Origin: Clostridia bacterium
GTDB taxonomy: Bacteria > Bacillota > Clostridia > Oscillospirales > Acutalibacteraceae
Direction: 5' to 3'
DNA length: 11,775 bases
NCBI GenBank assembly: GCA_017462405.1
Contig: JAFTRF010000114.1
Location: 1 to 11,775 of the forward strand
The notes under the pieces are model-generated. The model was not told the DNA's origin and searched no databases. It saw nothing but the letters and a program-made list of their open reading frames with translations. Position 1 is the first letter of the stretch; every line of letters starts with the position of its first letter. The translations under genes and the position numbers were made by a program. Positions 1,663-11,775 of the stretch are shown here, piece after piece.

Positions 1663-1719
1663 AAAAGCTCCCTCCGTAGTTCGTATTTCCGGTGCCGCAG
1701 TACGCTCCGGTCTGCTTTT

Positions 1720-1748
1720 ATTATAGCAGAAAAATAAATATCCTGCAA
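1720..1748 (-). promoter_or_regulatory. Sigma-70-type promoter for the PHP gene (-35 TTGCAG, 17-bp spacer, -10 TATAAT, read on the - strand)
   Basis: Reverse complement of 1720-1748 reads TTGCAG-N17-TATAAT. It sits about 60 bp upstream of the PHP start codon. Confidence 0.6.
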
Positions 1749-1778
1749 CAGTTTTCTGCTATCCTTGCTATTTTCTGC
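1723..1778. promoter_or_regulatory. Candidate operator: perfect 11-bp inverted repeat ATAGCAGAAAA (1723-1733) / TTTTCTGCTAT (1752-1762), plus a third half-site copy TTTTCTGCGAA (1771-1781)
   Basis: Seen directly. The left arm overlaps the -10 of the PHP promoter. The third copy lies in the spacer of the WYL-operon promoter. Confidence 0.55.
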
Positions 1779-1792
1779 GAATGGTGTATAAT
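1765..1792 (+). promoter_or_regulatory. Sigma-70-type promoter for the WYL regulator operon (-35 TTGCTA, 16-bp spacer, -10 TATAAT)
   Basis: TTGCTA 1765-1770 and TATAAT 1787-1792. It is followed by RBS GGAG (1815-1818) and the ATG at 1827. Confidence 0.6.
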
Positions 1793-1826
1793 AAATAATA
1801 TATTCCAGACGAAAGGAGTGTGTACG

Positions 1827-3080
1827 ATGTCTGTCTATCGGGAGCTGATCAAAAATTTTGAAAAAATCCGTAAAATCATGCGTGAGTTTTACGTCTACGG
1901 CTTCCGCAACCGGGAGGAATACCGCGGCAAAAGTGCCCGCTCCTACGACGATGAACGCCGCCGGCTGGAAAGCTGGCTGGGCAATCATATGCGTTTCGTA
2001 CATACCCCGGAAGGAAAAAATGTATTCATCTCCATCGACAGCCGAACCGAACCGTGCAATCCCTTGTATCAGGCATGGAAGGCCAAAAGCTTTACCGACG
2101 GCGACATTACCTTGCATTTCATTTTGTTCGATATTCTGCATAATCCGTCGGTGATGCTGTCCCTGAAGGAGATCCTGACGGCGGTGGACTCTTATCTTTC
2201 TGCAACCGGCAGTGCGATGGTCTTTGACGAATCTACCGTCCGCAAAAAGCTGAAGGAGTATACCGAACTGGGGCTGATTGTGGGCGAAAAATCCGGAAAA
2301 AAGCGGATGTACCGTCGCGCCGATGCGTTTCCGGACGAACTTCCGCCCGATGTCCTGCATTATTTTTCTGAAGCCGCACCGTGCGGTGTCATCGGGTCGT
2401 TTTTGCTGGACGGCCGGCCGCCGATGGACGGTTGCTTTGGTTTCAAGCATCACTACATTACTTCTGCAATGGACAGCGAGGTGTTGGCAGACCTTTTTTC
2501 CGCCATGCAGGAAAAGCGTATTGTCACGGTGTCCAATCTGAGCCGTCGCGCCGATGAACCGAAGCGGATGCGCATCATTCCACTGCGGGTGCTTATCAGC
2601 GTGCAGAGCGGACGGCAGCATCTGATGGCGTATCACCCGGAAAACAACATGATCAAGGCCTTCCGGGTGGATTACCTGTCCGATGTCCGTCCGGAAGAAG
2701 TCTCACCGCGTTTTGATGAACTGCGGGCCGAGCTGGACTGGATGCAGACGCGGATGTGGGGTGTGACCGTCCGCGGACGTACCGGCATCCCGGCCCGGAC
2801 GGAACACGTGGAATTTACCGTACGGGTCAAGCCCGGAGAGGAGCATATCATCCAGCGGCTGGAGCGGGAAAAGCGCGTTGGCTATGTGGAGCAGCTGGAC
2901 GAGCAGACGTGGCGATTTACGGCGGATGTGTACGACAGCGGCGAGCTTCGTCCGTGGATCCGGTCGTTTCTGTGCCGCATCAGCAGCCTGCATTGCTCCA
3001 ACCGTGCGGTGGAAAATCAATTCCGCAATGATCTGGACGCAATGTACCGGATGTACGGCATCGGGGAGGAAGGGACATGA
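1827..3080 (+). CDS. Transcriptional regulator with unknown N-terminal domain, winged HTH, WYL domain and WCX-like C-terminal domain (PafB/PafC-like)
   Basis: The ORF track starts at 1692, but the first ATG with an RBS (GAAAGGAG, 8-nt spacer) is 1827, giving 417 aa. wHTH-like segment SLKEILTAVDSYL..VRKKLKEYTELGLIV. WYL-domain signature RMRIIPLRVLISVQSGRQHLMAYHPENNMIKAFRVDYLSDV. WCX-like C-terminus ..DSGELRPWIRSFLCRISSLHCSNRAVENQF. Stop overlaps the next start (ATGA at 3077-3080). Confidence 0.75.
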   Translation: MSVYRELIKNFEKIRKIMREFYVYGFRNREEYRGKSARSYDDERRRLESWLGNHMRFVHTPEGKNVFISIDSRTEPCNPLYQAWKAKSFTDGDITLHFILFDILHNPSVMLSLKEILTAVDSYLSATGSAMVFDESTVRKKLKEYTELGLIVGEKSGKKRMYRRADAFPDELPPDVLHYFSEAAPCGVIGSFLLDGRPPMDGCFGFKHHYITSAMDSEVLADLFSAMQEKRIVTVSNLSRRADEPKRMRIIPLRVLISVQSGRQHLMAYHPENNMIKAFRVDYLSDVRPEEVSPRFDELRAELDWMQTRMWGVTVRGRTGIPARTEHVEFTVRVKPGEEHIIQRLEREKRVGYVEQLDEQTWRFTADVYDSGELRPWIRSFLCRISSLHCSNRAVENQFRNDLDAMYRMYGIGEEGT

Positions 3081-3982
3081 TCTTTCATGAGATTCATTCG
3101 GTATATTACCGTACCGTGGGGAAATTACTGCGCGCCCTGCTGGTCGGCGTGTCGTCCGAAGCAGATTTACGGCGCATCATACAGGAGAATGCTTTTGAAG
3201 AAAGCATCCTGACGATTCTGCCGGCACTGAAGGAAGGCAAATGGCCATTGATGCGCCCGGACCGGACGACGCCTCTGCGGCATCCGCCGACCCAGCCGCT
3301 GACCCTGCTGGAAAAGCGTTGGCTGAAGGCCATCCTGCTTGACCCGCGTATCCAGTTGTTTGATTTATCCGTACATGGGCTGGAGGCGGTGATGCCGCTG
3401 TTCACCACGGCGGATTACTGCATCTACGACCAATACACCGACGGCGATCCGTACACGGATGCCGGGTATCAGGAGCGCTTCCGGCGGATCCTGTCTGCGG
3501 TACGGGCAAAACAGCCGCTGAAACTGGAAGTAGAGTGCCGCCGGGGCGGAACGGAATGCCTGACGGTATGTCCTGCCCGGTTGGAATACTCCGAAAAAGA
3601 CGACAAGTTCCGGTTGCGCTGCGGCGGTGCCCGGCGCAAGGTCATCAACCTGGCGCGCATTGTATCCTGTGTCCCGGCGGATCCGGAGGGGAGTTTTGCT
3701 GCACCGCTGCCGCTTGTCAAACGAAGCGTTTCGCTGAAGATCCGGAATGAACGCAATACCCCGGAGCGGGTACTGCTCCATTTTGCCCATCTGGAAAAGC
3801 AGGCCGTACGGGAAGACGACGGTCGTTATCTGGTGCATCTCCGCTATGATGCGGAGGACGAAACTGAAATGCTCATCCGTATACTGAGTTTCGGCCCGAT
3901 GGTCGAGGTTGTTGCCCCGGAACGCTTCCGGAATTTAATCATTGCACGGCTGAAAGCACAAAAAAGCTGCGGACCAATCTGA
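3077..3982 (+). CDS. Second, paralogous WYL-domain / WCX-domain regulator, translationally coupled to the first
   Basis: 301 aa. RBS GGAGG lies 7 nt upstream. WYL-like core LTVCPARLEYSEKDDKFRLRCGGARRKVINLARIVSCV. Clear WCX-type C-terminus RYLVHLRYDAEDETEMLIRILSFGPMVEVVAPERFRNLIIARLKA. N-terminus MIFHEIHSVYYRT.. resembles the MSVYRELI.. start of the first gene. Confidence 0.7.
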   Translation: MIFHEIHSVYYRTVGKLLRALLVGVSSEADLRRIIQENAFEESILTILPALKEGKWPLMRPDRTTPLRHPPTQPLTLLEKRWLKAILLDPRIQLFDLSVHGLEAVMPLFTTADYCIYDQYTDGDPYTDAGYQERFRRILSAVRAKQPLKLEVECRRGGTECLTVCPARLEYSEKDDKFRLRCGGARRKVINLARIVSCVPADPEGSFAAPLPLVKRSVSLKIRNERNTPERVLLHFAHLEKQAVREDDGRYLVHLRYDAEDETEMLIRILSFGPMVEVVAPERFRNLIIARLKAQKSCGPI

Positions 3983-3999
3983 GTTCGCAGCTTTTTTTC
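3962..3999 (+). terminator. Rho-independent terminator at the end of the WYL operon
   Basis: Stem AAGCTGCGGA (3964-3973) / TCGCAGCTT (3985-3993), followed by TTTTTTT. The stem overlaps the last codons of the second WYL gene. Confidence 0.75.
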
Positions 4000-4420
4000 C
4001 GTGATTTTTCCAGATGGATGCGATAAAATAATCCTGCAAGGTCACTTCATGTGGTGCAGTCCACCGCACCATGGTACGTCCGGCGCTGCCGCGCACGTAT
4101 GCCGAAGGATTTTTGCACTTGGAGCGGGTTCGAATCCCGCCCGTAATGCGTTGGATCGCAATTGTGCCCTGACCCGGCACACGCCGTGTAACAACGGCTC
4201 AATGATTTATGTGAATGCGGCCGCGCCGCCCCGTACGGAACTCTTGCGGTATCCGACGAGGCAGTACGGCGACAGCCTTGTCCCGGAATCTCCCCGCTGT
4301 GTGACACCGGCAGCCAGAAGTCCAGACTTCCCGCTGCCGGACGATCCTCCGGGCATTCCGGGCCGCTCCGCCGTATGTGCGTCCGCAATCCGCTATCACC
4401 CTCAAGGAGGTATATATATT
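4000..4420 (+). ncRNA. Candidate structured non-coding RNA or long 5' leader upstream of the SPFH-rtcB genes, containing a tRNA-like T-arm
   Basis: About 420 bp with locally elevated GC and no RBS-preceded ORF. GCGGG-TTCGAAT-CCCGC (4124-4140) is a canonical tRNA T-stem-loop (GGTTCGAATCC). Several further hairpins follow: GGTGC..GCACC 4053-4070, TGTGCC..GGCACA 4163-4182, GCCG..CGGC 4183-4199. Strand and exact ends are not determined. Confidence 0.35.
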
Positions 4421-5518
4421 ATGAAAAAGATCATCATCAACGAAAACCAGCGCGGTTTCCTGTTTAAAAACGGTAAGTATGTCCGGATGCTGTCTGCCGG
4501 CAAATATTATCTGTTCGGTGGCCGGGAAATCGAAATCGTATCTATGGAACAGCCCATCGGTTCTGCCCGGTGCGCCTTGAACACCCTGCTGGCTGACCCG
4601 AACATTTCCGCATCTGCGGCTGTCGTCGAAGTCGGGGATCAGCAACTGGCACTCCACTTCGTCAACGGTCAGTTTGCGGAGGTGCTCCGCCGTGGCACGT
4701 ATGCCTATTGGTACGATCCCGACCACCACGCGTTTCAGCTGGTGGATATTTCCGCCCAGGAGGTCGGTGCGGACGTTCCGGAATACATTTTCAGCAAGAT
4801 CCCGCTGTCGTGGTACACCCGGATCGAAGTGGCAGAATACCAGAAAGCGCGCCTGTACGTTAACCAGAAGTTCGTGCGTCTGCTGGATGCGGGCACGTAC
4901 TATTTCTGGAAAAACGGCGCAAAAGTAGACGTAGGCTATGTGGACACCCGTCTGACCCAGCTGAACATCACCGGTCAGGAAATCCTGACCCGCGATAAGG
5001 TTGCCTTGCGGATCAACTTCGTTTGCCGCTATCGGGTGACCGACTATATAAAAATCGCCACCGAAATCGACGACTTTGCCGAGCAGCTGCACGTCACGGC
5101 CCAGCTGGCCCTGCGGGATTATGTCGGCAAGTACAAGCTGGACGAAATTCTGGAAAACAAAGAGGAGCTTTCCCGGTTTGTCTTTGACCGGCTGAAAGCA
5201 GAGGAGCAGGCGTTGTTTGTGGAAATCGTGGATGCCGGCGTCAAGGACATCATCCTGCCCGGCGAGATCCGCGACATCATGAACACCGTCCTGATTGCTG
5301 AAAAGCGGGCGCAGGCCAACGTCATCACCCGCCGCGAGGAAGTCGCGTCTACCCGTTCGCTGCTGAACACTGCAAAGCTTATGGACGAAAACCAGACGCT
5401 GTATAAACTCAAGGAACTGGAGTACATCGAGCGCATCTGCGAAAACGTGGGCACCATCCAGCTTAACGGCAACGGAGACGTGCTGTCGCAGCTGACCGGC
5501 TTGCTCCGGAAAAGCTGA
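4421..5518 (+). CDS. SPFH / band-7 (stomatin-prohibitin-flotillin-HflK/C) domain protein, soluble, with a triplicated N-terminal motif
   Basis: RBS AAGGAGG with a 10-nt spacer and the ATG at 4421, giving 365 aa. The ORF track extends to 4001, but that N-terminal extension is not protein-like. SPFH core: KVALRINFVCRYRVTDY..LALRDYVGKYKLDEIL..FVEIVDAGVKDIILPGEIRDIM..AEKRAQANV. No hydrophobic N-terminal helix. Confidence 0.85.
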   Translation: MKKIIINENQRGFLFKNGKYVRMLSAGKYYLFGGREIEIVSMEQPIGSARCALNTLLADPNISASAAVVEVGDQQLALHFVNGQFAEVLRRGTYAYWYDPDHHAFQLVDISAQEVGADVPEYIFSKIPLSWYTRIEVAEYQKARLYVNQKFVRLLDAGTYYFWKNGAKVDVGYVDTRLTQLNITGQEILTRDKVALRINFVCRYRVTDYIKIATEIDDFAEQLHVTAQLALRDYVGKYKLDEILENKEELSRFVFDRLKAEEQALFVEIVDAGVKDIILPGEIRDIMNTVLIAEKRAQANVITRREEVASTRSLLNTAKLMDENQTLYKLKELEYIERICENVGTIQLNGNGDVLSQLTGLLRKS

Positions 5519-5567
5519 CCGCGCACCATCCGACCACATTCATTCCTTACAGAAAGGAGAAACCATC

Positions 5568-6776
5568 ATGATTGAAATTACAGGAAAATACAATTCCGCC
5601 GTGTGCTATACCGATCAGGTGGAGCCGGAAGCATACAAGCAGATACTGACGGTATGCAATGAAGAAGCCTTTCAGCACAGTAAAATCCGCATCATGCCTG
5701 ACGTTCACGCCGGAAAAGGCTGTACCATCGGCACCACGATGACCATCACCGACCGGGTCGTGCCCAACATGGTCGGGGTCGACATCGGCTGCGGCATGTA
5801 TACGGTTTGTCTCGGACAGACCGACATTGATCTCGCACAGTTTGATGCGGCTGCACACGAGATTCCCAGTGGCCGCGCGGTGTGGCAGGGACGGCAGGAG
5901 AAATTCGACCTGACGGCACTGCGCTGTTTCCGCAGCCTCAAGGATACCAAACGGCTGGAGCGCAGCCTCGGTACGCTGGGCGGTGGCAACCACTTCATTG
6001 AAATCGATGTGGACGAGGACGGCAACAAGTATCTGATCATCCACTCCGGCAGCCGGAATCTGGGGACACAAGTTGCGGAAATCTATCAAAATTTCGCCGT
6101 TGACCTCAACTGCGGCAAGGAAGTCTACTTCCAGCGCCGCGATGAAATCATCCGCACCTACAAGGCCTCCGGTCGTAAAAGTGAAATTGCCTCCGCGCTG
6201 AAGGCATTGGCCAAAAGCTTTGTGTCTCAGCCGCTGACCATGCCCAAGGAGTTGTGCTATCTGTATGGCTCGCTCATGGATGATTATCTCCACGACCTGG
6301 CCCTCTGCCAACACTTCGCCCTGCGCAACCGCGAGAAAATGGCCGAAATCCTGTTAGCAAAGACCGGACTGCAGGGCGGCGAAGCTTTCCAGACCATCCA
6401 CAATTATATTGATGTGGATGAGATGATCCTCCGCAAGGGTGCCGTGTCGGCAAAGGTGGGGGAGAAACTGCTGATTCCGATCAATATGCGTGACGGCAGC
6501 CTGCTGTGTGTCGGCAAGGGCAACCCGGACTGGAATTGCTCCGCGCCGCACGGTGCTGGACGGTTGCTGTCCCGCTCGATGGCGCGCGAACAGCTGACCA
6601 TGGCAGAATATCAGGCCGAGATGGCAGGCATTTACACGACCTGCGTTTCGGCGGGTACGCTGGACGAATCGCCCATGGCCTACAAGCGCATCGACGACAT
6701 CGTGGCACATATCGATCCCACTGCAGAGATCATTGCGCGTCTCCGACCGATTTACAACTTCAAGGCATCGGAATAA
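5568..6776 (+). CDS. rtcB: RNA-splicing ligase RtcB (3'-phosphate / 5'-OH RNA ligase)
   Basis: 402 aa. Motifs IMPDVHAGKGCTIGT, GVDIGCGM, GGGNHFIEI..IIHSGSRNLG, CSAPHGAGR and ESPMAYKRIDDI align with the E. coli RtcB active-site motifs. RBS AAAGGAG with an 8-nt spacer. The 49-bp gap after the SPFH gene has no terminator, so the two are likely co-transcribed. Confidence 0.95.
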   Translation: MIEITGKYNSAVCYTDQVEPEAYKQILTVCNEEAFQHSKIRIMPDVHAGKGCTIGTTMTITDRVVPNMVGVDIGCGMYTVCLGQTDIDLAQFDAAAHEIPSGRAVWQGRQEKFDLTALRCFRSLKDTKRLERSLGTLGGGNHFIEIDVDEDGNKYLIIHSGSRNLGTQVAEIYQNFAVDLNCGKEVYFQRRDEIIRTYKASGRKSEIASALKALAKSFVSQPLTMPKELCYLYGSLMDDYLHDLALCQHFALRNREKMAEILLAKTGLQGGEAFQTIHNYIDVDEMILRKGAVSAKVGEKLLIPINMRDGSLLCVGKGNPDWNCSAPHGAGRLLSRSMAREQLTMAEYQAEMAGIYTTCVSAGTLDESPMAYKRIDDIVAHIDPTAEIIARLRPIYNFKASE

Positions 6777-6796
6777 ATTTATACTGTAACACAGGA

Positions 6797-6838
6797 AAAG
6801 GGGTGTACTTGCAGCTTTTTGCAGTACATCCCTTTTCC
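6797..6838 (+). terminator. Rho-independent terminator after rtcB
   Basis: Stem GGGGTGTACT(t)GCA / TGCAGTACATCCC, about 12 bp with one bulge and one G·U pair. Loop TTTTT, followed by TTTTC. Confidence 0.7.
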
Positions 6839-7727: not shown

Positions 7728-7803
<76 letters not shown>

Positions 7804-7804
7804 T

Positions 7805-7843
7805 AAAACGGTAGCAATCGTAATGGGTTCTACCGTTTTTTTG
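7805..7843 (+). terminator. Rho-independent terminator after the tRNA
   Basis: Stem AACGGTAG (7807-7814) / CTACCGTT (7830-7837), followed by TTTTTTT. Confidence 0.8.
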
Positions 7844-7847
7844 TTCA

Positions 7848-7918
7848 GAAAATATTGCACGAATACGTCATGGAAATATCACATGAGCGAATATTTGTTT
7901 CATGAAAATATCGCATGA
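7848..7918 (+). repeat. Three direct copies of a roughly 15-bp motif (GAAAATATTGCACGAA, GGAAATATCACATGA, GAAAATATCGCATGA), plus an inverted partial copy; candidate integrase arm-type sites
   Basis: Copies at 7848-7863, 7872-7886 and 7904-7918. Inverted copy AAATATTCGC (reverse complement of 7887-7896). They lie 45-115 bp 3' of the tRNA end. Confidence 0.45.
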
Positions 7919-8002
7919 ACACTTTATGCAGCTTTTTCAGAACAAAAAAAGAAGTCACCGCACCTCCCTTGCAGGTCTGCCAAAACGATGCAAGAAAAAT
8001 GG

Positions 8003-8030
8003 TTGACTTCTCAAAGACCTGTGTTATAAT
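8003..8030 (+). promoter_or_regulatory. Orphan near-consensus promoter with extended -10 (TTGACT, 16-bp spacer, TGtTATAAT)
   Basis: TTGACT 8003-8008, TG at 8022-8023 and TATAAT 8025-8030. No downstream protein-coding gene on this strand. Confidence 0.7.
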
Positions 8031-8036
8031 CGAATC

Positions 8037-8272
8037 ATGATTGATTACAACACAAGTAATTTCCGGGGAGACGCATGAAGTTCCATTCTTGCAGTTTTGG
8101 TGCAAGGAGGTACAAAGCCGTCCGAAAGGTTCGCCAAAACCATTCGGGAAGCGTTTGCGTATTCTCTGTATGAGACGCACGAGAATTCCGTTCTTGCACT
8201 AGCCATGCAGAACAGAATTGTAAGCTGATCTGTCGGTCGCCAAACCTTCAGACGGTGTTCGGGCGTTTCTTT
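8037..8272 (+). ncRNA. Candidate small RNA of about 235 nt between the tRNA and the integrase gene; direction converges on the integrase
   Basis: Bounded by the promoter at 8003-8030 and a U-tract (8266-8272) after an imperfect hairpin. Internal hairpins CCGAA-GGTT..AACC-TTCGG (8109-8137) and TGCGT..ACGCA. Only 13-aa and 32-aa ORFs, each without a well-spaced RBS. Confidence 0.4.
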
Positions 8273-8395
8273 TTTTGTCTAAAAATGGACTTTTCCTGCC
8301 TGCCACAGCATGAAAAGAAACATTGTACTCTTACTATACACCCCTTTTGAATAAAAAGCAATAGTTCAACATTGATTTTTGAGATTTTGCGAAGA

Positions 8396-8520
8396 TTTTT
8401 GCGCGCAAAAAGCCCTGCTCCGTAGGCCAGAAATGCTTTCCAATACAGCAGATCCCGGAATAATAAGAGTTCCAGGAGTCGTGATGGAGGCAAATCAAGC
8501 CTTGTCGGAGCAGAGCTTTT
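8396..8520. repeat. Long inverted repeat AAAAGCCCTGCTCCG / CGGAGCAGAGCTTTT closing an 83-nt loop, adjacent to the perfect palindrome TTTTTGCGCGCAAAAA (8396-8411); probable terminator region between convergent transcripts
   Basis: Arms at 8407-8422 and 8506-8520, with 14 of 15 bases complementary. On the - strand the structure directly follows the integrase stop (8525) and is followed by a T-run. Confidence 0.5.
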
Positions 8521-8524
8521 TATT

Positions 8525-9382
8525 TTATTCAAAAACTTTGAGAAGCTGATTCTTCAGATAGTCTTGGTCAGGGTGTACATAGCGACGGGTAGTGAACGCT
8601 GGATTGGTATGTCCGAGAATCTTAGACAGGGCGGTGACTTCAATACCTTTTTCAATCGCGCGTGTAGCGAAGGTATGACGATATACATGCGTGGTCAGGT
8701 TCGGCAGATTGGCGGCTTTCCGCAGCCGAAGATAAAGCCCTTTCAGTACCTCTGTGCTGATCTGCTGGGAAGTGGAGGTCTGAAATACATATGCATTCTG
8801 AGGTATACCATCATGGTGAAGATCAGTCAGCAGCGCTACCATTCTGGAGGTCAGCGGAACACGACGGACACCGGCTTCGGTCTTGGAGGTCTGAATATTG
8901 AGCCAGCCCTGACACAGATCGACATCGCTCCATTTCAGATTCTGCAACTCAGATCTGCGAAGCCCGGTGTACAGGAAAAAAATCACAACATGACCCAACG
9001 GGTCGTTGAGGGCAGCCTTTTCAAGTCGCGCCTGTTCGTTTACAGTCAGACCATCTACATTTTTTTCACATGCGTTTCGGGGTACGGTCAATCCGTTGCT
9101 GGGGGAGGACGTAATCAGGTTGTTCTTTACCGCATAACACAAAGACGACGTAAAGATACTACGGATTTTTTGCAGTGTGGATTTGGATAAATGTGTGGAG
9201 AGCGTATTCAGGGCATCCTGCAACATTACGTGTTTGATTTCCTCGATTTCAGTTTGCATCAGGTCAGGAAAATGCTTATGCAGGGTTTTGATGAGGTGGA
9301 CATACATGGTTGTGGTGGAGGTTGTAACTTTTGGACGCATATATATATCCATCCATTGTTGCAGCCAATGCGAATAGGTCAT
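8525..9382 (-). CDS. Tyrosine site-specific recombinase / phage-type integrase
   Basis: 285 aa. N-terminal SAM-like region TYSHWLQQWMDIY..STTTMYVHLIKT. Catalytic motifs GLRRSEL, HVYRHTFAT, LGHTN and RRYVH (R..HxxR..H..Y). Confidence 0.9.
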   Translation of the reverse strand: MTYSHWLQQWMDIYMRPKVTTSTTTMYVHLIKTLHKHFPDLMQTEIEEIKHVMLQDALNTLSTHLSKSTLQKIRSIFTSSLCYAVKNNLITSSPSNGLTVPRNACEKNVDGLTVNEQARLEKAALNDPLGHVVIFFLYTGLRRSELQNLKWSDVDLCQGWLNIQTSKTEAGVRRVPLTSRMVALLTDLHHDGIPQNAYVFQTSTSQQISTEVLKGLYLRLRKAANLPNLTTHVYRHTFATRAIEKGIEVTALSKILGHTNPAFTTRRYVHPDQDYLKNQLLKVFE

Positions 9383-9590
9383 GAAAAATCCGTCCTTTCG
9401 TAAAATAGAATGGGGTTTCTTTCAGCATCTTATCAGATTTTACCAAAATAAGAGACGATTTTTTCAGTTGACGAACAACAGAGAGAAGCTCAGTAGATAA
9501 CTTTTCACTGACAATCTCAAAGTGCGCCTCACATGCGTTCAAGAAATCAAGGCCGGATTCGTTTGCGCTAATATCAGAAACAAGTTGCAT
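9276..9590 (-). CDS. Hypothetical small protein overlapping the 5' end of the integrase gene
   Basis: 104-aa ORF. Strong RBS AAGGAGGG with a 7-nt spacer. A perfect sigma-70 promoter lies upstream. The last roughly 35 codons overlap the integrase start in another frame (107 nt). That overlapping portion looks low-complexity, so the true C-terminus is uncertain. Confidence 0.4.
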   Translation of the reverse strand: MQLVSDISANESGLDFLNACEAHFEIVSEKLSTELLSVVRQLKKSSLILVKSDKMLKETPFYFTKGRIFHDLFALAATMDGYIYASKSYNLHHNHVCPPHQNPA

Positions 9591-9628
9591 GCATATTTCC
9601 CTCCTTAAAAAGAGAATATTTTACAAAA

Positions 9629-9657
9629 ATTATACCGTGTGTTTTTTGCTCTGTCAA
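9629..9657 (-). promoter_or_regulatory. Perfect consensus sigma-70 promoter (TTGACA, 17-bp spacer, TATAAT) on the - strand, driving the small ORF and integrase
   Basis: Reverse complement of 9652-9657 is TTGACA. Reverse complement of 9629-9634 is TATAAT. Spacer is 17 bp. Confidence 0.75.
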
Positions 9658-9666
9658 ACGAACGAG

Positions 9667-9741
9667 CCAGTTCTGAAGGGTAAACGCGAGGTTTCCGACA
9701 AAATTCACAGAATGTTTACGCTGCCTCCCAGTTCTGAAAGG
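9667..9741. repeat. Two direct repeats CCAGTTCTGAAGGG / CCAGTTCTGAAAGG, 61 bp apart, just upstream of the -35 of the - strand promoter
   Basis: Copies at 9667-9680 and 9728-9741, 13 of 14 identical. Candidate regulator or recombinase binding sites. Confidence 0.5.
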
Positions 9742-9770
9742 AATTTGTATTTTCAAAACTGCAAATCGCA

Positions 9771-9809
9771 AAAAAGATGTCCGAGTCACTTCAGACCCGG
9801 ACATCTTTT
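9771..9809 (-). terminator. Rho-independent terminator after the sortase gene (- strand)
   Basis: Perfect 12-bp stem 9772-9783 / 9798-9809 with a 14-nt loop. On the - strand it is followed by TTTTTTG. The sortase stop codon lies within the 3' arm. Confidence 0.8.
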
Positions 9810-10807
9810 CACTTTCCATAGAATGCTTCATACCCGTCGCGGATGGCCTCATCGGACGGTCTGGAGGCCGTGATGAAATCCAGCGCATAGTATCGGTCCG
9901 GCCAGAGGCGAACGGGATTTTTCTGGTAGGCCGATGTATCAACAGCATCCATACTTTCGTCATCCCGAAGCCGTCGGGCAATGATTACCGTCCGGTCGCC
10001 CCAGAAAAAGTAGTCGCAGGTGGACATAACGAGATAGGAATCGTCGATTCTGGGGTCATCCGGAATGTAATATGCGGACCGTATACGAGCCTGATAGATA
10101 TACGCATTGAACTGCTCCTCGTGGACAAAAGCGGTATTCGTATACGGAAACAACGTAGTTTCGTACTTGCTGGCGCGACAAACGGCGATGATTTTCCATT
10201 GACCCTCACGGTAGATGGTATCAAACGTAAACGTCGGATGCTTCTTCAGAAAGTCGAATTTCTTGAAAAGCATGAGCTGACCGAACATCAGATCGTCATA
10301 CTCCATGTTGTGTCCGTACATAACCAGTATTTGCGACTGAGGAGACAAGGCGCAGTTCCCGGCAATATACAGACTGCCGTATTTGTCGAAGCGACCGTCA
10401 GGGTCTTTCTTGAGATAATAGTCCGGGTTATCCGGAGTAAAAAACACGGGATGGTCCAGACTTGTTCCGGGTATTTTCAGCCATCCGGCGGTATCCTCGT
10501 TGCGGTTCAGCATGGGACGGAATTTATCCAGCACCTCAAGCGGTTCCATCGTCGGCGGTTTAGAACTGGTATCGGAAGAGGCAGGAGGATCTGGAGTGGG
10601 CTGCCCGTCGCCGTTGCCGGACCATCCGGAGGACGCAGCGGAAGACGAGCTGCCGTACAGGAGGTCCTTGTATTGATTGAGGGTATTCTGGTTCTGGGCC
10701 GGGGCGATCACCAACTCATAGGCCAGCACGGCACCGCTTCCAAGAAAGGACATCAGCAGAATTGCAAACAGGCTGCGGAACAATCGTTTGTGAGTTTTCT
10801 TTTTCAT
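9809..10807 (-). CDS. srtB: Class B sortase (SrtB-like transpeptidase)
   Basis: Start chosen at the ATG at 10807 (RBS GAGAGGAG), giving 332 aa. The ORF track extends to 10882 but that stretch lacks an RBS. N-terminal membrane anchor. Segments GWLKIPGTSLDHPV, ILVMYGHNM, YLVMSTCDY and RTVIIARRL align with S. aureus SrtB (GWIKLSGTSLNYPV, TILYGHHV, IMTLSTCED, RIVVVAKI). Confidence 0.9.
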   Translation of the reverse strand: MKKKTHKRLFRSLFAILLMSFLGSGAVLAYELVIAPAQNQNTLNQYKDLLYGSSSSAASSGWSGNGDGQPTPDPPASSDTSSKPPTMEPLEVLDKFRPMLNRNEDTAGWLKIPGTSLDHPVFFTPDNPDYYLKKDPDGRFDKYGSLYIAGNCALSPQSQILVMYGHNMEYDDLMFGQLMLFKKFDFLKKHPTFTFDTIYREGQWKIIAVCRASKYETTLFPYTNTAFVHEEQFNAYIYQARIRSAYYIPDDPRIDDSYLVMSTCDYFFWGDRTVIIARRLRDDESMDAVDTSAYQKNPVRLWPDRYYALDFITASRPSDEAIRDGYEAFYGK

Positions 10808-10938
10808 GCGTAATTTCTCCTCTCGATTAAAAAGAAAACCGCCCACTCCCACCAAACCAAAAAGGCAGAGTAAGCGGTTCATGTAAATTCGGTTGTTGAT
10901 TGCCTGAGAGTTCGTCAGGCCGTCGCCTTCGCCTCAGA

Positions 10939-11370
10939 TCAGAACGGCAGGTCCTCGTCGCTCAGGTCCACGTTCTCGTACTGCGGAGTCGCTCCTGCGG
11001 ATGCTCCGGTGCCGTTGACCGCCGGTGCGGACGCAGTGGCATTGCTTTTCTTCGACCCTACAGGGAAGTGGATGCTCTCGGCGATGATTTCGATGGCCTT
11101 GCGGTTTACACCGTTTTTGTCCTTGTAGGTCCGGGTCTGCAGACGACCCACAATGCCTACGCCATCACCCTTGTGGAAATACTTCGCGATGCGCTCGGCA
11201 TTGTTGCGCCACGCGACACACTCGAAAAAATCTGAATCGTATTCGCCATTTGCGTTTTTGTAGTCTCGTGCGACAGCGACAGCAAACGTCGAAACGGAAA
11301 TGCCGTTCGGGGTGGTTTTTACTTCGACGTCCTTGGTCAGACGGCCTTCGATAATAACAGTGTTCAACAT
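10939..11370 (-). CDS. ssb: Single-stranded DNA-binding protein
   Basis: 143 aa. OB-fold N-terminus (MLNTVIIEGRLTKDVEV..GISVSTFAVAV). Gly/Ala-rich linker. Acidic C-terminal tail DLSDEDLPF. RBS AAGGAG. Confidence 0.9.
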   Translation of the reverse strand: MLNTVIIEGRLTKDVEVKTTPNGISVSTFAVAVARDYKNANGEYDSDFFECVAWRNNAERIAKYFHKGDGVGIVGRLQTRTYKDKNGVNRKAIEIIAESIHFPVGSKKSNATASAPAVNGTGASAGATPQYENVDLSDEDLPF

Positions 11371-11392
11371 GATAGATTACTCCTTTTCAGAA

Positions 11393-11770
11393 TTAAATGT
11401 TTTGAGATGCGCTCATTTCCGCAATGATGCGCTCGCTGTCCCGCAAGAAGCGGACATAATTGGCCATGATCCACGCATTTTTGTGTTCGTTACACCGAAC
11501 CAAAATCTCGTAGAACTCCTCGTCCTTCAACTGTACGGTTCCCTTGACAGAAACTTTGTACGTGCCAGAAACAATGGAGGTCGTGCCGTTTGCACCTTGC
11601 TGGATTTTGCCCGTGCCGTTTTCGACGGTAATCATCCAAGGATAGGTTTTCACCTTTCCGTTGTACTGTTGCTGACGCACAATGCTGAGTTTTGTGACCT
11701 TTGCGTCGCCGCCACCGGTAGCAATGCACTTCGTTTCTGGCTCGATCGTAACATCTCGTCCGGTGGTCAT
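11393..11770 (-). CDS. Hypothetical beta-rich protein of about 125 aa, immediately upstream of ssb; no family recognised
   Basis: ORF with a 22-bp gap to ssb, so likely the same operon. The frame is open to the window edge, so the real start may lie beyond 11775. Confidence 0.5.
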   Translation of the reverse strand: MTTGRDVTIEPETKCIATGGGDAKVTKLSIVRQQQYNGKVKTYPWMITVENGTGKIQQGANGTTSIVSGTYKVSVKGTVQLKDEEFYEILVRCNEHKNAWIMANYVRFLRDSERIIAEMSASQNI

Positions 11771-11775
11771 GCCCC

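Follow-up and report, generated by a model that had tools for sequence, protein, structure and literature searches.

A conserved cassette of two WYL regulators, a structured leader RNA, a membrane-free SPFH protein and RtcB in Clostridia, with a predicted role in RNA repair

The window, a stretch of 11,775 nucleotides from a Clostridia bacterium, carries on its forward strand two genes for WYL-domain proteins (WYL1 and WYL2), a structured RNA, a gene for a soluble SPFH protein and a gene for the RNA ligase RtcB. The order WYL1-WYL2-RNA-SPFH-RtcB, at 1827-6776, recurs across 80 species-level Clostridia genomes. The features are as follows.

1765-1792, forward strand: candidate sigma-70-like promoter for the WYL pair, TTGCTA-N16-TATAAT (consensus scan, 10/12 matches)
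1827-3080, forward strand: WYL1, a 417-aa wHTH-WYL-WCX regulator (Pfam, PADLOC, AF2 and Foldseek, homologue length)
3077-3982, forward strand: WYL2, a 301-aa WYL-WCX protein with a helical N-domain (Pfam, PADLOC, AF2 and Foldseek)
3957-4003, forward strand: hairpin resembling a terminator, flanked by runs of A and of U, where WYL2 ends (dG -22.6 kcal/mol, z -5.2)
3984-4003, forward strand: the invariant 20-mer, TTCGCAGCTTTTTTTCCGTG, which spans about -52 to -33 and is the candidate operator for WYL1 and WYL2 (family conservation)
4024-4029, forward strand: -10 hexamer TAAAAT of the leader/SPFH/rtcB promoter (conserved block tggTAaaaT)
4035-4198, forward strand: leader RNA domain A (family covariation and minimum-energy fold of the window), with P1 (4035-4043 with about 4107-4117), P2 hairpin (4051-4072), P3/P4 (4073-4103), the T-arm, P5 (4145-4163) and two further hairpins (4164-4180 and 4183-4198)
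4124-4140, forward strand: tRNA T-arm mimic GCGGGUUCGAAUCCCGC (partial Rfam match, family conservation, covariation)
4262-4378, forward strand: leader RNA domain B core, nested long-range helices (covariance model, compensatory changes)
4404-4410, forward strand: ribosome-binding site AAGGAGG of the SPFH gene (read from the sequence, conserved in the family alignment)
4421-5518, forward strand: soluble stomatin-type SPFH ("slipin") protein, 365 aa (Band_7, stomatin PDB matches, repeats, hydropathy)
5568-6776, forward strand: RtcB RNA ligase, 402 aa (Pfam RtcB, 8.4e-61; alignment to P. horikoshii RtcB)
6794-6838, forward strand: strong hairpin closing the operon (dG -32.1 kcal/mol, z -6.5)

All the parts named in a preliminary description of this DNA (WYL pair, SPFH protein without transmembrane segment, RtcB and structured RNA) were thus found by Pfam, PADLOC, Foldseek and covariation, albeit with two corrected gene starts: WYL1 begins at 1827 and not at 1692, its homologues being 417 aa long, and the SPFH gene begins at 4421 and not at 4001, behind its ribosome-binding site. 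An integrated element is located near the cassette within the window.

The stop of WYL1 and the start of WYL2 overlap by 4 nt (ATGA, 3077-3080), and the two genes are translationally coupled. In Pfam, WYL1 matched the WYL family (1.3e-7) and, weakly, WCX, and WYL2 matched WCX (5.3e-9); the PADLOC WYL model matched WYL1 at 3.7e-13 and residues 129-294 of WYL2 at 2.6e-12, and a search of NCBIfam with the WYL proteins gave no match. Sequence searches of the PDB with the single WYL proteins and with profiles yielded marginal matches only (PafBC chains at E 0.42 in the profile search), and predicted structures were therefore needed for matching the WYL fold. With AlphaFold models of both proteins, Foldseek returned DriD, PafBC, BrxR and CapW at E values of 1e-9 to 1e-7, reaching 1.4e-9 for WYL1; the WYL2 model (pLDDT 76) matched PafBC and DriD at 1e-8. 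A winged HTH had been expected in the first regulator, and residues ~95-165 of WYL1 are indeed confidently modelled as a winged-helix region that matches wHTH proteins. The helical N-domain of WYL2 (residues 1-95) is partly confident, with pLDDT below 50 over residues 42-72, and is not clearly an HTH; judging from the model, WYL2 may lack a working one.

The two proteins had been described as paralogous and PafBC-like. Both do combine WYL and WCX regions, but comparison of the two families with hhalign (E 0.006, 6% probability) makes the paralogy a remote one. The likeness to PafBC, the actinobacterial DNA-damage activator, and to DriD of Caulobacter holds for the HTH-WYL-WCX architecture (Foldseek E 1e-9 to 1e-8) and, for PafB/PafC, also for the tandem arrangement of two paralogous WYL-WCX genes, but not beyond these; sequence similarity is marginal (E about 0.4), and on that ground orthology with actinobacterial PafB/PafC is rejected. 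WYL1 further differs by an extra N-terminal segment of ~90 residues, modelled with low confidence, and the presumed target of the pair is a predicted RNA-repair operon.

The SPFH protein matched Pfam Band_7 at 1.5e-25, and its best PDB matches, down to 2.7e-18, were stomatin 16-mers; profile positions 138-345 align to residues 78-286 of stomatin in 9oh9_A, and to 34-236 of the best match, 9wmj_A. According to this alignment the SPFH domain is followed by a coiled-coil oligomerisation region, as in the membrane cages of stomatin/slipin, HflK/C and QmcA, which share an SPFH domain with a C-terminal helical region. In contrast to these, an N-terminal membrane anchor or hairpin is absent: no hydrophobic segment was found in the protein (maximum Kyte-Doolittle 19-residue mean 1.18), in agreement with its earlier designation as membrane-less. 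The N-terminus consists instead of a ~135-aa module of two repeats. The protein had also been called triplicated, which is correct for an N-terminal beta-motif of ~65 aa with copies starting at residues 8, 73 and 139, but not for the SPFH domain, which is single and begins with the third copy. The two-repeat module occurs once in the window, whereas relatives with lengths of about 500, 637 and 787 aa match it in up to 7 stretches; it is an expandable repeat module. Homologues of the SPFH protein are numerous (7559 among 8000 scored candidates at E <= 1e-5).

RtcB exhibits the motifs PDVHxG, DIGCG, GGNHF, HSGSR and HGAGR when aligned to P. horikoshii RtcB (PH1602), and its catalytic residues, the metal-binding Cys/His and the GMP-accepting histidine, are by this alignment intact. 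No RtcR (CARF/sigma-54) or RtcA domains were found among the ORFs of the window.

The conservation of the arrangement was followed across related loci. The WYL pair lies directly upstream in 43 of 52 informative loci, and RtcB follows SPFH on the same strand in 57 of 68, as it does in the window. No conservation was found between related loci in the genes flanking the cassette, which therefore behaves as a unit. With four genes and an RNA conserved together, the adjacency is not confined to this strain, which was the outcome named earlier as fatal to the proposed module. The conservation is not complete, and the loci without an upstream WYL pair (9/52) or an adjacent RtcB (11/68) count against the mechanism proposed below. 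In Citrobacter, a nucleotidyltransferase stands in place of RtcB beside the SPFH homologue; because of this replacement and of the loci without RtcB, the RNA-SPFH pair, and not the ligase, is the constant core. In some loci rtcB is followed by a gene for RlaP, a nucleotidyltransferase with links to RNA repair. Cultured gut species with members of the cassette family are Ruthenibacterium lactatiformans, Oscillibacter valericigenes and Subdoligranulum variabile.

Since WYL regulators often control defence islands, the cassette might serve anti-phage defence or abortive infection and not repair, and its occurrence in differing genomic contexts, indicating that it moves, as well as the integrated element in the window, would fit such a role. 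On the other hand, PADLOC matched generic WYL models only and neither SPFH nor RtcB, a search of 50,697 phage records found no homologue of the SPFH protein, related loci have no toxin or nuclease as a conserved neighbour, and the catalytic motifs of RtcB are intact. We regard a defence function as improbable.

The promoter region of the leader, SPFH and rtcB lies between WYL2 and the RNA. The invariant 20-mer at 3984-4003 was matched exactly in 61 of 80 loci, once per locus and once in the window, where none is expected by chance. Part of it is formed by the 3' half of the terminator-like hairpin at 3957-4003; in loci without an adjacent WYL2 the 5' half of the hairpin is absent and the 3' half is retained. 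A spacer of 20 nt separates the 20-mer from the -10 hexamer in 51 of 65 loci, and an extended -10 with TG at -15/-14 is present in 46 of 65, albeit not in the window, which counts against the preferred reading. P1 of the leader RNA begins 5 nt after the -10, and the transcript should accordingly start at the first leader helix, near 4035, and continue through the leader into SPFH and rtcB.

The 20-mer is our candidate for the binding site of the WYL pair. The preliminary description had pointed, among other DNA, to 1711-1792, but that region is unconserved between loci. The assignment of the promoter at 1765-1792 is likewise weak, because the regions upstream of WYL1 are not conserved. A motif CTGCGAA at -52 of WYL1 in the window was considered as part of an operator common to the WYL1 and leader promoters, and was rejected as a chance occurrence because the sequences upstream of WYL1 bear no relation to each other in 48 loci.

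Centred near -42 and overlapping the -35 region, the 20-mer has a position suggestive of activation by a WYL heterodimer in contact with RNA polymerase. The pair could alternatively be a repressor like BrxR and CapW, both among its structural matches, that occludes the -35 region until it is released by its ligand. WYL proteins have been described as repressors of defence operons (PMC11888443), and an extended -10 promoter needs no activator. However, the TG extension is absent from the window promoter, DriD and PafBC, which match best in structure, are activators, and a centre near -42 would be the classical class-II activator position, clear of the -10 and the start site. We hold repression to be a possibility of some weight, though doubtful, and retain activation as the working model.

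The intergenic region downstream of this promoter folds better than its shuffles (z = -4.0) and is a conserved structured RNA, a ~385-nt leader of two domains 5' of the SPFH gene. It had been singled out as GC-rich, but its 58% GC is ordinary for the contig, and related leaders range from 36 to 63%. In domain A, 96% of cells are paired across the family and 11 pairs exhibit changes on both sides; none of 500 shuffles reached the observed covariation values. P1 is complementary in 63 of 64 sequences, and the minimum-energy fold of the window leader alone reproduces P1-P5. Domain B exhibits compensatory changes in 29 of 33 predicted pairs in the family, and a covariance model built without the window recognised it there with 34.5 bits (E 3e-7). 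With the held-out covariance model, 33 of 36 searched sources (30 unused in model building, among them the window) yielded the RNA upstream of SPFH. The window RNA, with a score of only 34.5 bits, is a divergent, minimal copy, which again counts against the preferred reading.

A scan of Rfam (E <= 1; the window and 12 related loci) assigned the leader to no family, and riboswitches and the large non-coding RNAs GOLLD, ROOL, raiA, OLE and HEARO were not matched. The one similarity was that of the 17-nt T-arm fragment to tmRNA, a partial match in the tmRNA/tRNA clan (E 0.005). The T-arm motif is found in about 61 of 81 leaders and its stem covaries (CG/UA in 28/10 sequences, GC/AU in 31/8). Many relatives also possess a hairpin like an anticodon arm with a 7-nt loop, which in many species reads YUGUNAA; U33-G34-U35 is the signature of Asp/Asn/His/Tyr tRNAs. 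The window RNA has neither this arm nor the GGAUACCG loop.

These tRNA-like traits raise the alternative of a genuine small tRNA-like gene (b7a-tRNA), an independent cloverleaf transcript next to otherwise unrelated leader sequence. ARAGORN called a tRNA in 5 of 81 leaders, with inconsistent identities, but none in the other 76 and none at 3983-4420 of the window; a cloverleaf was not found in the window leader, although the T-arm mimic is present and conserved. An acceptor-like complementarity is perfect (7/7) in 32 of 56 sequences. The candidate acceptor stem, formed by GUGUAUG and CGUAUGC, is 87% paired with zero compensatory change and loses to the competing helices P3 and P5, which do show such change. 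Moreover, P1 joins the 5' end of the transcript to the "D-arm" position, and the covariation of domain B, which lies 100-250 nt downstream, is just as strong. An independent tRNA-like gene is therefore very improbable, and the tRNA-like piece appears to be the T-arm only, inside a two-domain leader, with a tRNA acceptor stem unsupported. A genuine tRNA-Ala at 7728 was the sole match of the Rfam tRNA model in the window.

A second alternative is that the leader is purely cis-regulatory, like a riboswitch, T-box or attenuator, and gates SPFH-rtcB by metabolite, tRNA or protein without forming a ribonucleoprotein with SPFH. It lies on the same strand between promoter and ribosome-binding site with no terminator-like site between, its covarying fold is complex and, as in riboswitches, contains invariant loops, and the 3' strand of P3 and the 5' strand of P5 are also mutually pairable (87% of cells), which would allow two conformations. 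In contrast, its consensus contains neither a helix sequestering the ribosome-binding site nor an intrinsic terminator, it matched no Rfam riboswitch, and in 9 loci an additional ORF lies between the RNA and SPFH. Full-length proteobacterial SPFH homologues, as in Citrobacter, adjoin rtcR, and the leader beside this same SPFH subfamily carries a T-arm-like hairpin. That a leader with a T-arm is retained where the regulator is RtcR instead suggests an RNA-protein partnership, and we consider the purely cis-regulatory reading rather unlikely. The domain B covariance model, run with filters off, found no match in the Citrobacter leader, and outside the T-arm the proteobacterial RNA is at most a putative homologue.

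The gene set itself is already in the literature. The SPFH insertion with its upstream RNA had been thought undescribed, but a system of RtcB, a Band-7 protein and a predicted "b7a-tRNA", proposed as a ligation cofactor, was put forward by Burroughs & Aravind in 2016 (as cited in bioRxiv 10.1101/312249), and an SPFH gene lies within the Pseudomonas rtc locus (PMC13086221). As of 2018, the roles of the Band-7 protein and the tRNA-like RNA in RNA repair were unvalidated predictions (10.1101/312249), and our literature searches yielded no experiments on SPFH together with RtcB. As far as they are described second-hand, the systems of Burroughs & Aravind (NAR 2016) likewise have SPFH beside RtcB with a tRNA-like element immediately upstream, are spread across phyla and have an RlaP-type nucleotidyltransferase as occasional partner. 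They differ in that here the T-arm (with the anticodon-like arm in relatives) is embedded in a ~385-nt two-domain leader, whose covarying helices leave no acceptor stem supported. Three findings go beyond these predictions, namely the leader with its size and a fold that is not that of a tRNA, the arrangement of the 20-mer and the -10, and the SPFH repeat module; for the leader, no description was found in the literature searched, which did not cover the full text of Burroughs & Aravind 2016, and it may be new.

CARF and WYL transcription factors have been presented as sensors regulating RNA-repair pathways in a 2022 paper from the Aravind laboratory (PMC9503650), which cites Burroughs & Aravind 2016 for WYL-domain transcription factors. 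Together with the rtcR-adjacent homologues of Citrobacter, this is consistent with the earlier suggestion of WYL factors as an alternative to RtcR. As in RtcR-rtcBA of E. coli and Salmonella, an RtcB operon is under a dedicated, here predicted, nucleic-acid-sensing regulator, and as in the Salmonella system with Rsr/Ro and the Y RNA YrlA, the ligase is accompanied by a scaffold protein and by an RNA that has a tRNA-like domain. In contrast to these systems, RtcR, RtcA and Ro are missing from the window, SPFH takes the place of Ro, and the promoter is of sigma-70 type with a conserved -10, TG-extended in most loci.

We infer that the cassette is probably the version, common in gut Oscillospirales-type Clostridia, of the predicted Band-7(SPFH)/RtcB RNA-repair systems, and give the same fair degree of credence to the mechanism as a whole. 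WYL1 and WYL2 would act as a PafBC-like heterodimer on the 20-mer, with their WYL domains binding a signal of nucleic-acid damage, which would be either ssDNA or RNA fragments ending in 2',3'-cyclic-phosphate or 5'-OH, and ligand binding would turn transcription on, somewhat more likely by activation from the class-II-like position than by relief of repression. The leader RNA, possibly processed, would associate with an oligomeric, membrane-free SPFH assembly, and the resulting RNP would recruit or organise RtcB, which would reseal cleaved tRNA, rRNA or tmRNA. The known WYL regulators DriD, PafBC and CapW bind ssDNA and not RNA, which counts against sensing of RNA fragments. A bolder version, which we think quite unlikely, makes the leader a new class of large structured RNA and the dedicated partner of a repeat-extended SPFH cage, free of membrane, in a vault-like cytosolic RNP that baits or senses ribonuclease toxins; the T-arm and, in many species, the YUGUNAA loop would mimic tRNA, the WYL pair would sense the products of cleavage, and RtcB would rejoin them.

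In this family the Band-7/RtcB system is compact, strongly conserved and accessible to experiment. The family occurs in cultured gut species, and it offers a precisely defined candidate operator, a predicted transcription start and an RNA whose secondary structure can be tested. If this RNA is a stable component of an RNP, it would be added to the few large structured bacterial RNAs and would link SPFH scaffolds to RNA biology.

In the window, which spans an entire 11,775-nt contig of a Clostridia MAG, two regulator genes, WYL1 and WYL2, precede an intergenic leader RNA, a gene for an SPFH/Band_7 protein and rtcB, as listed here together with the features of the downstream flank.

Features of the window (plus strand unless marked)
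1827-3080, +, WYL1, regulator gene
3077-3982, +, WYL2; its start codon and the stop codon of WYL1 share the sequence ATGA
438 nt between WYL2 and the SPFH gene, +, intergenic region holding the leader RNA
about 4035-4198, +, domain A of the leader RNA
4421-5518, +, SPFH/Band_7 protein
5568-6776, +, RtcB
6794-6838, strong hairpin 3' of rtcB
7728-7803, tRNA-Ala(GGC)
8525-9382, -, tyrosine integrase
9809-10882, -, sortase-like protein
10939-11370, -, SSB, with one further ORF beyond

The upstream flank encodes DegV and a PHP phosphoesterase, both unrelated to the cassette. Downstream, an alpha/beta hydrolase gene is followed by the tRNA-Ala, integrase, sortase-like and SSB genes in DNA of lower GC. 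The stretch 7728-11775 is probably a mobile element integrated at tRNA-Ala, with no relation to the cassette; GC falls to 0.40-0.44 over this interval.

An alignment-based scan with one genome per species gave 80 loci whose SPFH proteins are 65-76% identical to that of the window. Nearly all are from Oscillospirales-type MAGs, with the isolates Ruthenibacterium lactatiformans and Oscillibacter valericigenes among them, and the SPFH gene was also found on a Subdoligranulum variabile replicon. When the window's proteins were compared with the 80 loci by tblastn, WYL1 and WYL2 lay directly upstream of the SPFH gene in 43 of the 52 loci with at least 3 kb of upstream sequence, RtcB lay directly downstream in 57 of the 68 with at least 1.5 kb downstream, and the complete four-gene set was present in 32/48. 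The association of the WYL pair with SPFH-rtcB, proposed in the preliminary description, thus extends well beyond one strain. The DegV, PHP and hydrolase neighbours recurred in none of the related loci (tblastn), and clustering of all ORFs revealed no further conserved neighbour except an RlaP-family nucleotidyltransferase (PF10127), encoded 3' of rtcB in a few loci (e.g. L081, 9168-9935, and L008, 10359-11114). Since the gene order recurs and the flanks and other neighbours do not, the cassette is a unit. Where RtcB is missing, the genes 3' of the SPFH gene are unrelated; in one such locus (L037, 9237-10112) a HIRAN-domain protein is encoded there. In about nine loci an extra ORF of ~221 codons, with a hydrophobic N-terminus and no Pfam match, separates the SPFH gene from the leader RNA (7318-7983 in L045; same position in L041, L056, L063 and L064).

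WYL1 matched the Pfam WYL profile (1.3e-7) and, weakly, WCX, and the only Pfam match of WYL2 was to WCX (5.3e-9); the PADLOC WYL model, which spans both domains, matched WYL1 at 3.7e-13 and WYL2 at 2.6e-12. Sequence searches of the PDB with these proteins gave marginal matches. AlphaFold models built from 28-sequence alignments (pLDDT 60 for WYL1 and 76 for WYL2) retrieved DriD, PafBC, BrxR and CapW by Foldseek, with E values of 1e-9 to 1e-7. The winged-helix region is confidently modeled in WYL1, and the N-domain of WYL2 is modeled as helical, partly with low confidence. Similarity between the WYL1 and WYL2 families is remote. The sequence coding for the C-terminal end of WYL2 (…QKSCGPI*) doubles as the 5' half of a hairpin at 3957-4003 with A and U runs on its flanks, so that the invariant C-terminal QKSC of this family may reflect constraint from the DNA/RNA element no less than from the protein.

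The candidate operator of the WYL pair is an invariant 20-mer, TTCGCAGCTTTTTTTCCGTG (3984-4003), present as one exact plus-strand copy in the window and in each of 61/80 loci. It is retained even in loci that lack both an adjacent WYL2 and the 5' half of the terminator-like hairpin, and so belongs to the downstream unit. The distance from its end to a -10 hexamer (TAAAAT and variants) is 20 nt in 51/65 loci, a TG at -15/-14 is found in 46/65 (the window has none), and the first RNA helix begins 5 nt past the -10 in 49 loci. Computed from these spacings, the 20-mer spans approximately -52 to -33, which would place it where class-II activators bind. Upstream of WYL1 no sequence is shared across the loci.

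The leader RNA had no Rfam match beyond a 17-nt fragment of its T-arm mimic, and ARAGORN made no tRNA call in the leader of the window and made one in only 5/81 relatives. In domain A, helices P3, P4 and P5 and the T-arm are 96% paired across 39 distinct sequences, with 11 pairs changed on both sides, values reached by 0/500 shuffles. P1 pairs the 5' end of the transcript with a segment past P3 in 63/64 sequences, and the minimum-energy fold of the window's own sequence reproduces P1-P5. A tRNA-acceptor-like pairing was also considered and was rejected, being 87% paired but with zero compensatory pairs. Between P1 and the T-arm, relatives carry one or both of two additional hairpins, the first resembling an anticodon arm and the other a second T-arm; the window's leader is the shortest version, with neither. 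The anticodon-arm-like hairpin lies 6-7 nt 5' of the T-arm (e.g. 293-309 of the intergenic region in L013, 197-211 in L003), and YUGUNAA is the usual sequence of its 7-nt loop (CUGUCAA in seven cases, CUGUAAA in four, CUGUUAA in two, UUGUGAA and others). This loop has the U33-G34-U35 pattern of Asp, Tyr, Asn and His tRNAs, which are the queuosine-modified tRNAs and the targets of colicin E5.

Domain B shows compensatory changes in 29/33 predicted pairs. Its covariance model, built without the window, matched upstream of the SPFH gene in 33/36 sources, 30 of the 36, the window included, being outside model building. The match in the window (4262-4378; 34.5 bits, E 3e-7 within the window) indicates a real yet divergent member.

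The SPFH protein is of stomatin type, profile positions 138-345 aligning to human stomatin, and hydropathy of the window's protein revealed no hydrophobic anchor. Three copies of a ~65-aa motif start at residues 8, 73 and 139, the third being the opening of the SPFH domain. The first two form a module of ~135 aa, present in 481 cluster representatives (E <= 0.001). Up to 7 stretches match it in SPFH representatives of about 365, 500, 637 and 787 aa (the longer homologues being P0002/P0004, 637-638 aa; P0361, 496 aa; P0363, 787 aa), and the module is therefore expandable. In the major vault protein, repeat domains precede an SPFH-like shoulder, and the two-repeat module may be likened to these, loosely. 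RtcB keeps the motifs aligning with the metal ligands and GMP-histidine of the P. horikoshii enzyme.

Previous work, as summarised in a 2018 preprint (10.1101/312249), showed that some bacteria encode RtcB beside a Band-7 protein and a predicted 'b7a-tRNA' (Burroughs & Aravind 2016), the latter described in the preprint as unvalidated. In 2022 the same group (PMC9503650) named transcription factors of the CARF and WYL types as sensors regulating RNA-repair pathways, with the 2016 study cited for the WYL-domain factors, and an SPFH gene lies inside the Pseudomonas rtc locus (2026; PMC13086221). Full-length SPFH homologues with 33-35% identity were found in Burkholderia, Citrobacter and E. coli. 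On a Citrobacter freundii replicon (L082) the slipin gene diverges from rtcR, and the 450-nt leader between them (5546-5995) contains a sigma-54-type promoter, TGGCACGCTTCTGGCA, and a T-arm-like hairpin, GTGGGTTCGATTCCCA, with a small hairpin immediately 3', an order common to the Clostridial leaders. The domain-B model had no match in this region. The slipin gene of Citrobacter and E. coli (L082, L083) is directly followed by a nucleotidyltransferase gene, and rtcB is absent. Based on the 2016 prediction as summarised, the 2022 listing and the Citrobacter rtcR neighbour, the gene set belongs to a kind already predicted, and its WYL pair occupies the place held elsewhere by RtcR.

The best-supported account of the cassette, whose anatomy and conservation are what we observed, has four steps. 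The WYL pair would sense a nucleic-acid damage signal and control the promoter via the 20-mer; a leader-SPFH-rtcB transcript would be produced; a soluble, oligomeric SPFH protein, together with the RNA, would serve as scaffold or cofactor; and RtcB would reseal broken RNAs. That the pair binds the 20-mer, what its ligand is, in which direction control acts, and whether the leader RNA is processed and associates with SPFH are matters of inference. Relative to Rfam and the literature found, three features are new: how far the RNA really extends and how it folds, the candidate operator, and the geometry of the promoter.
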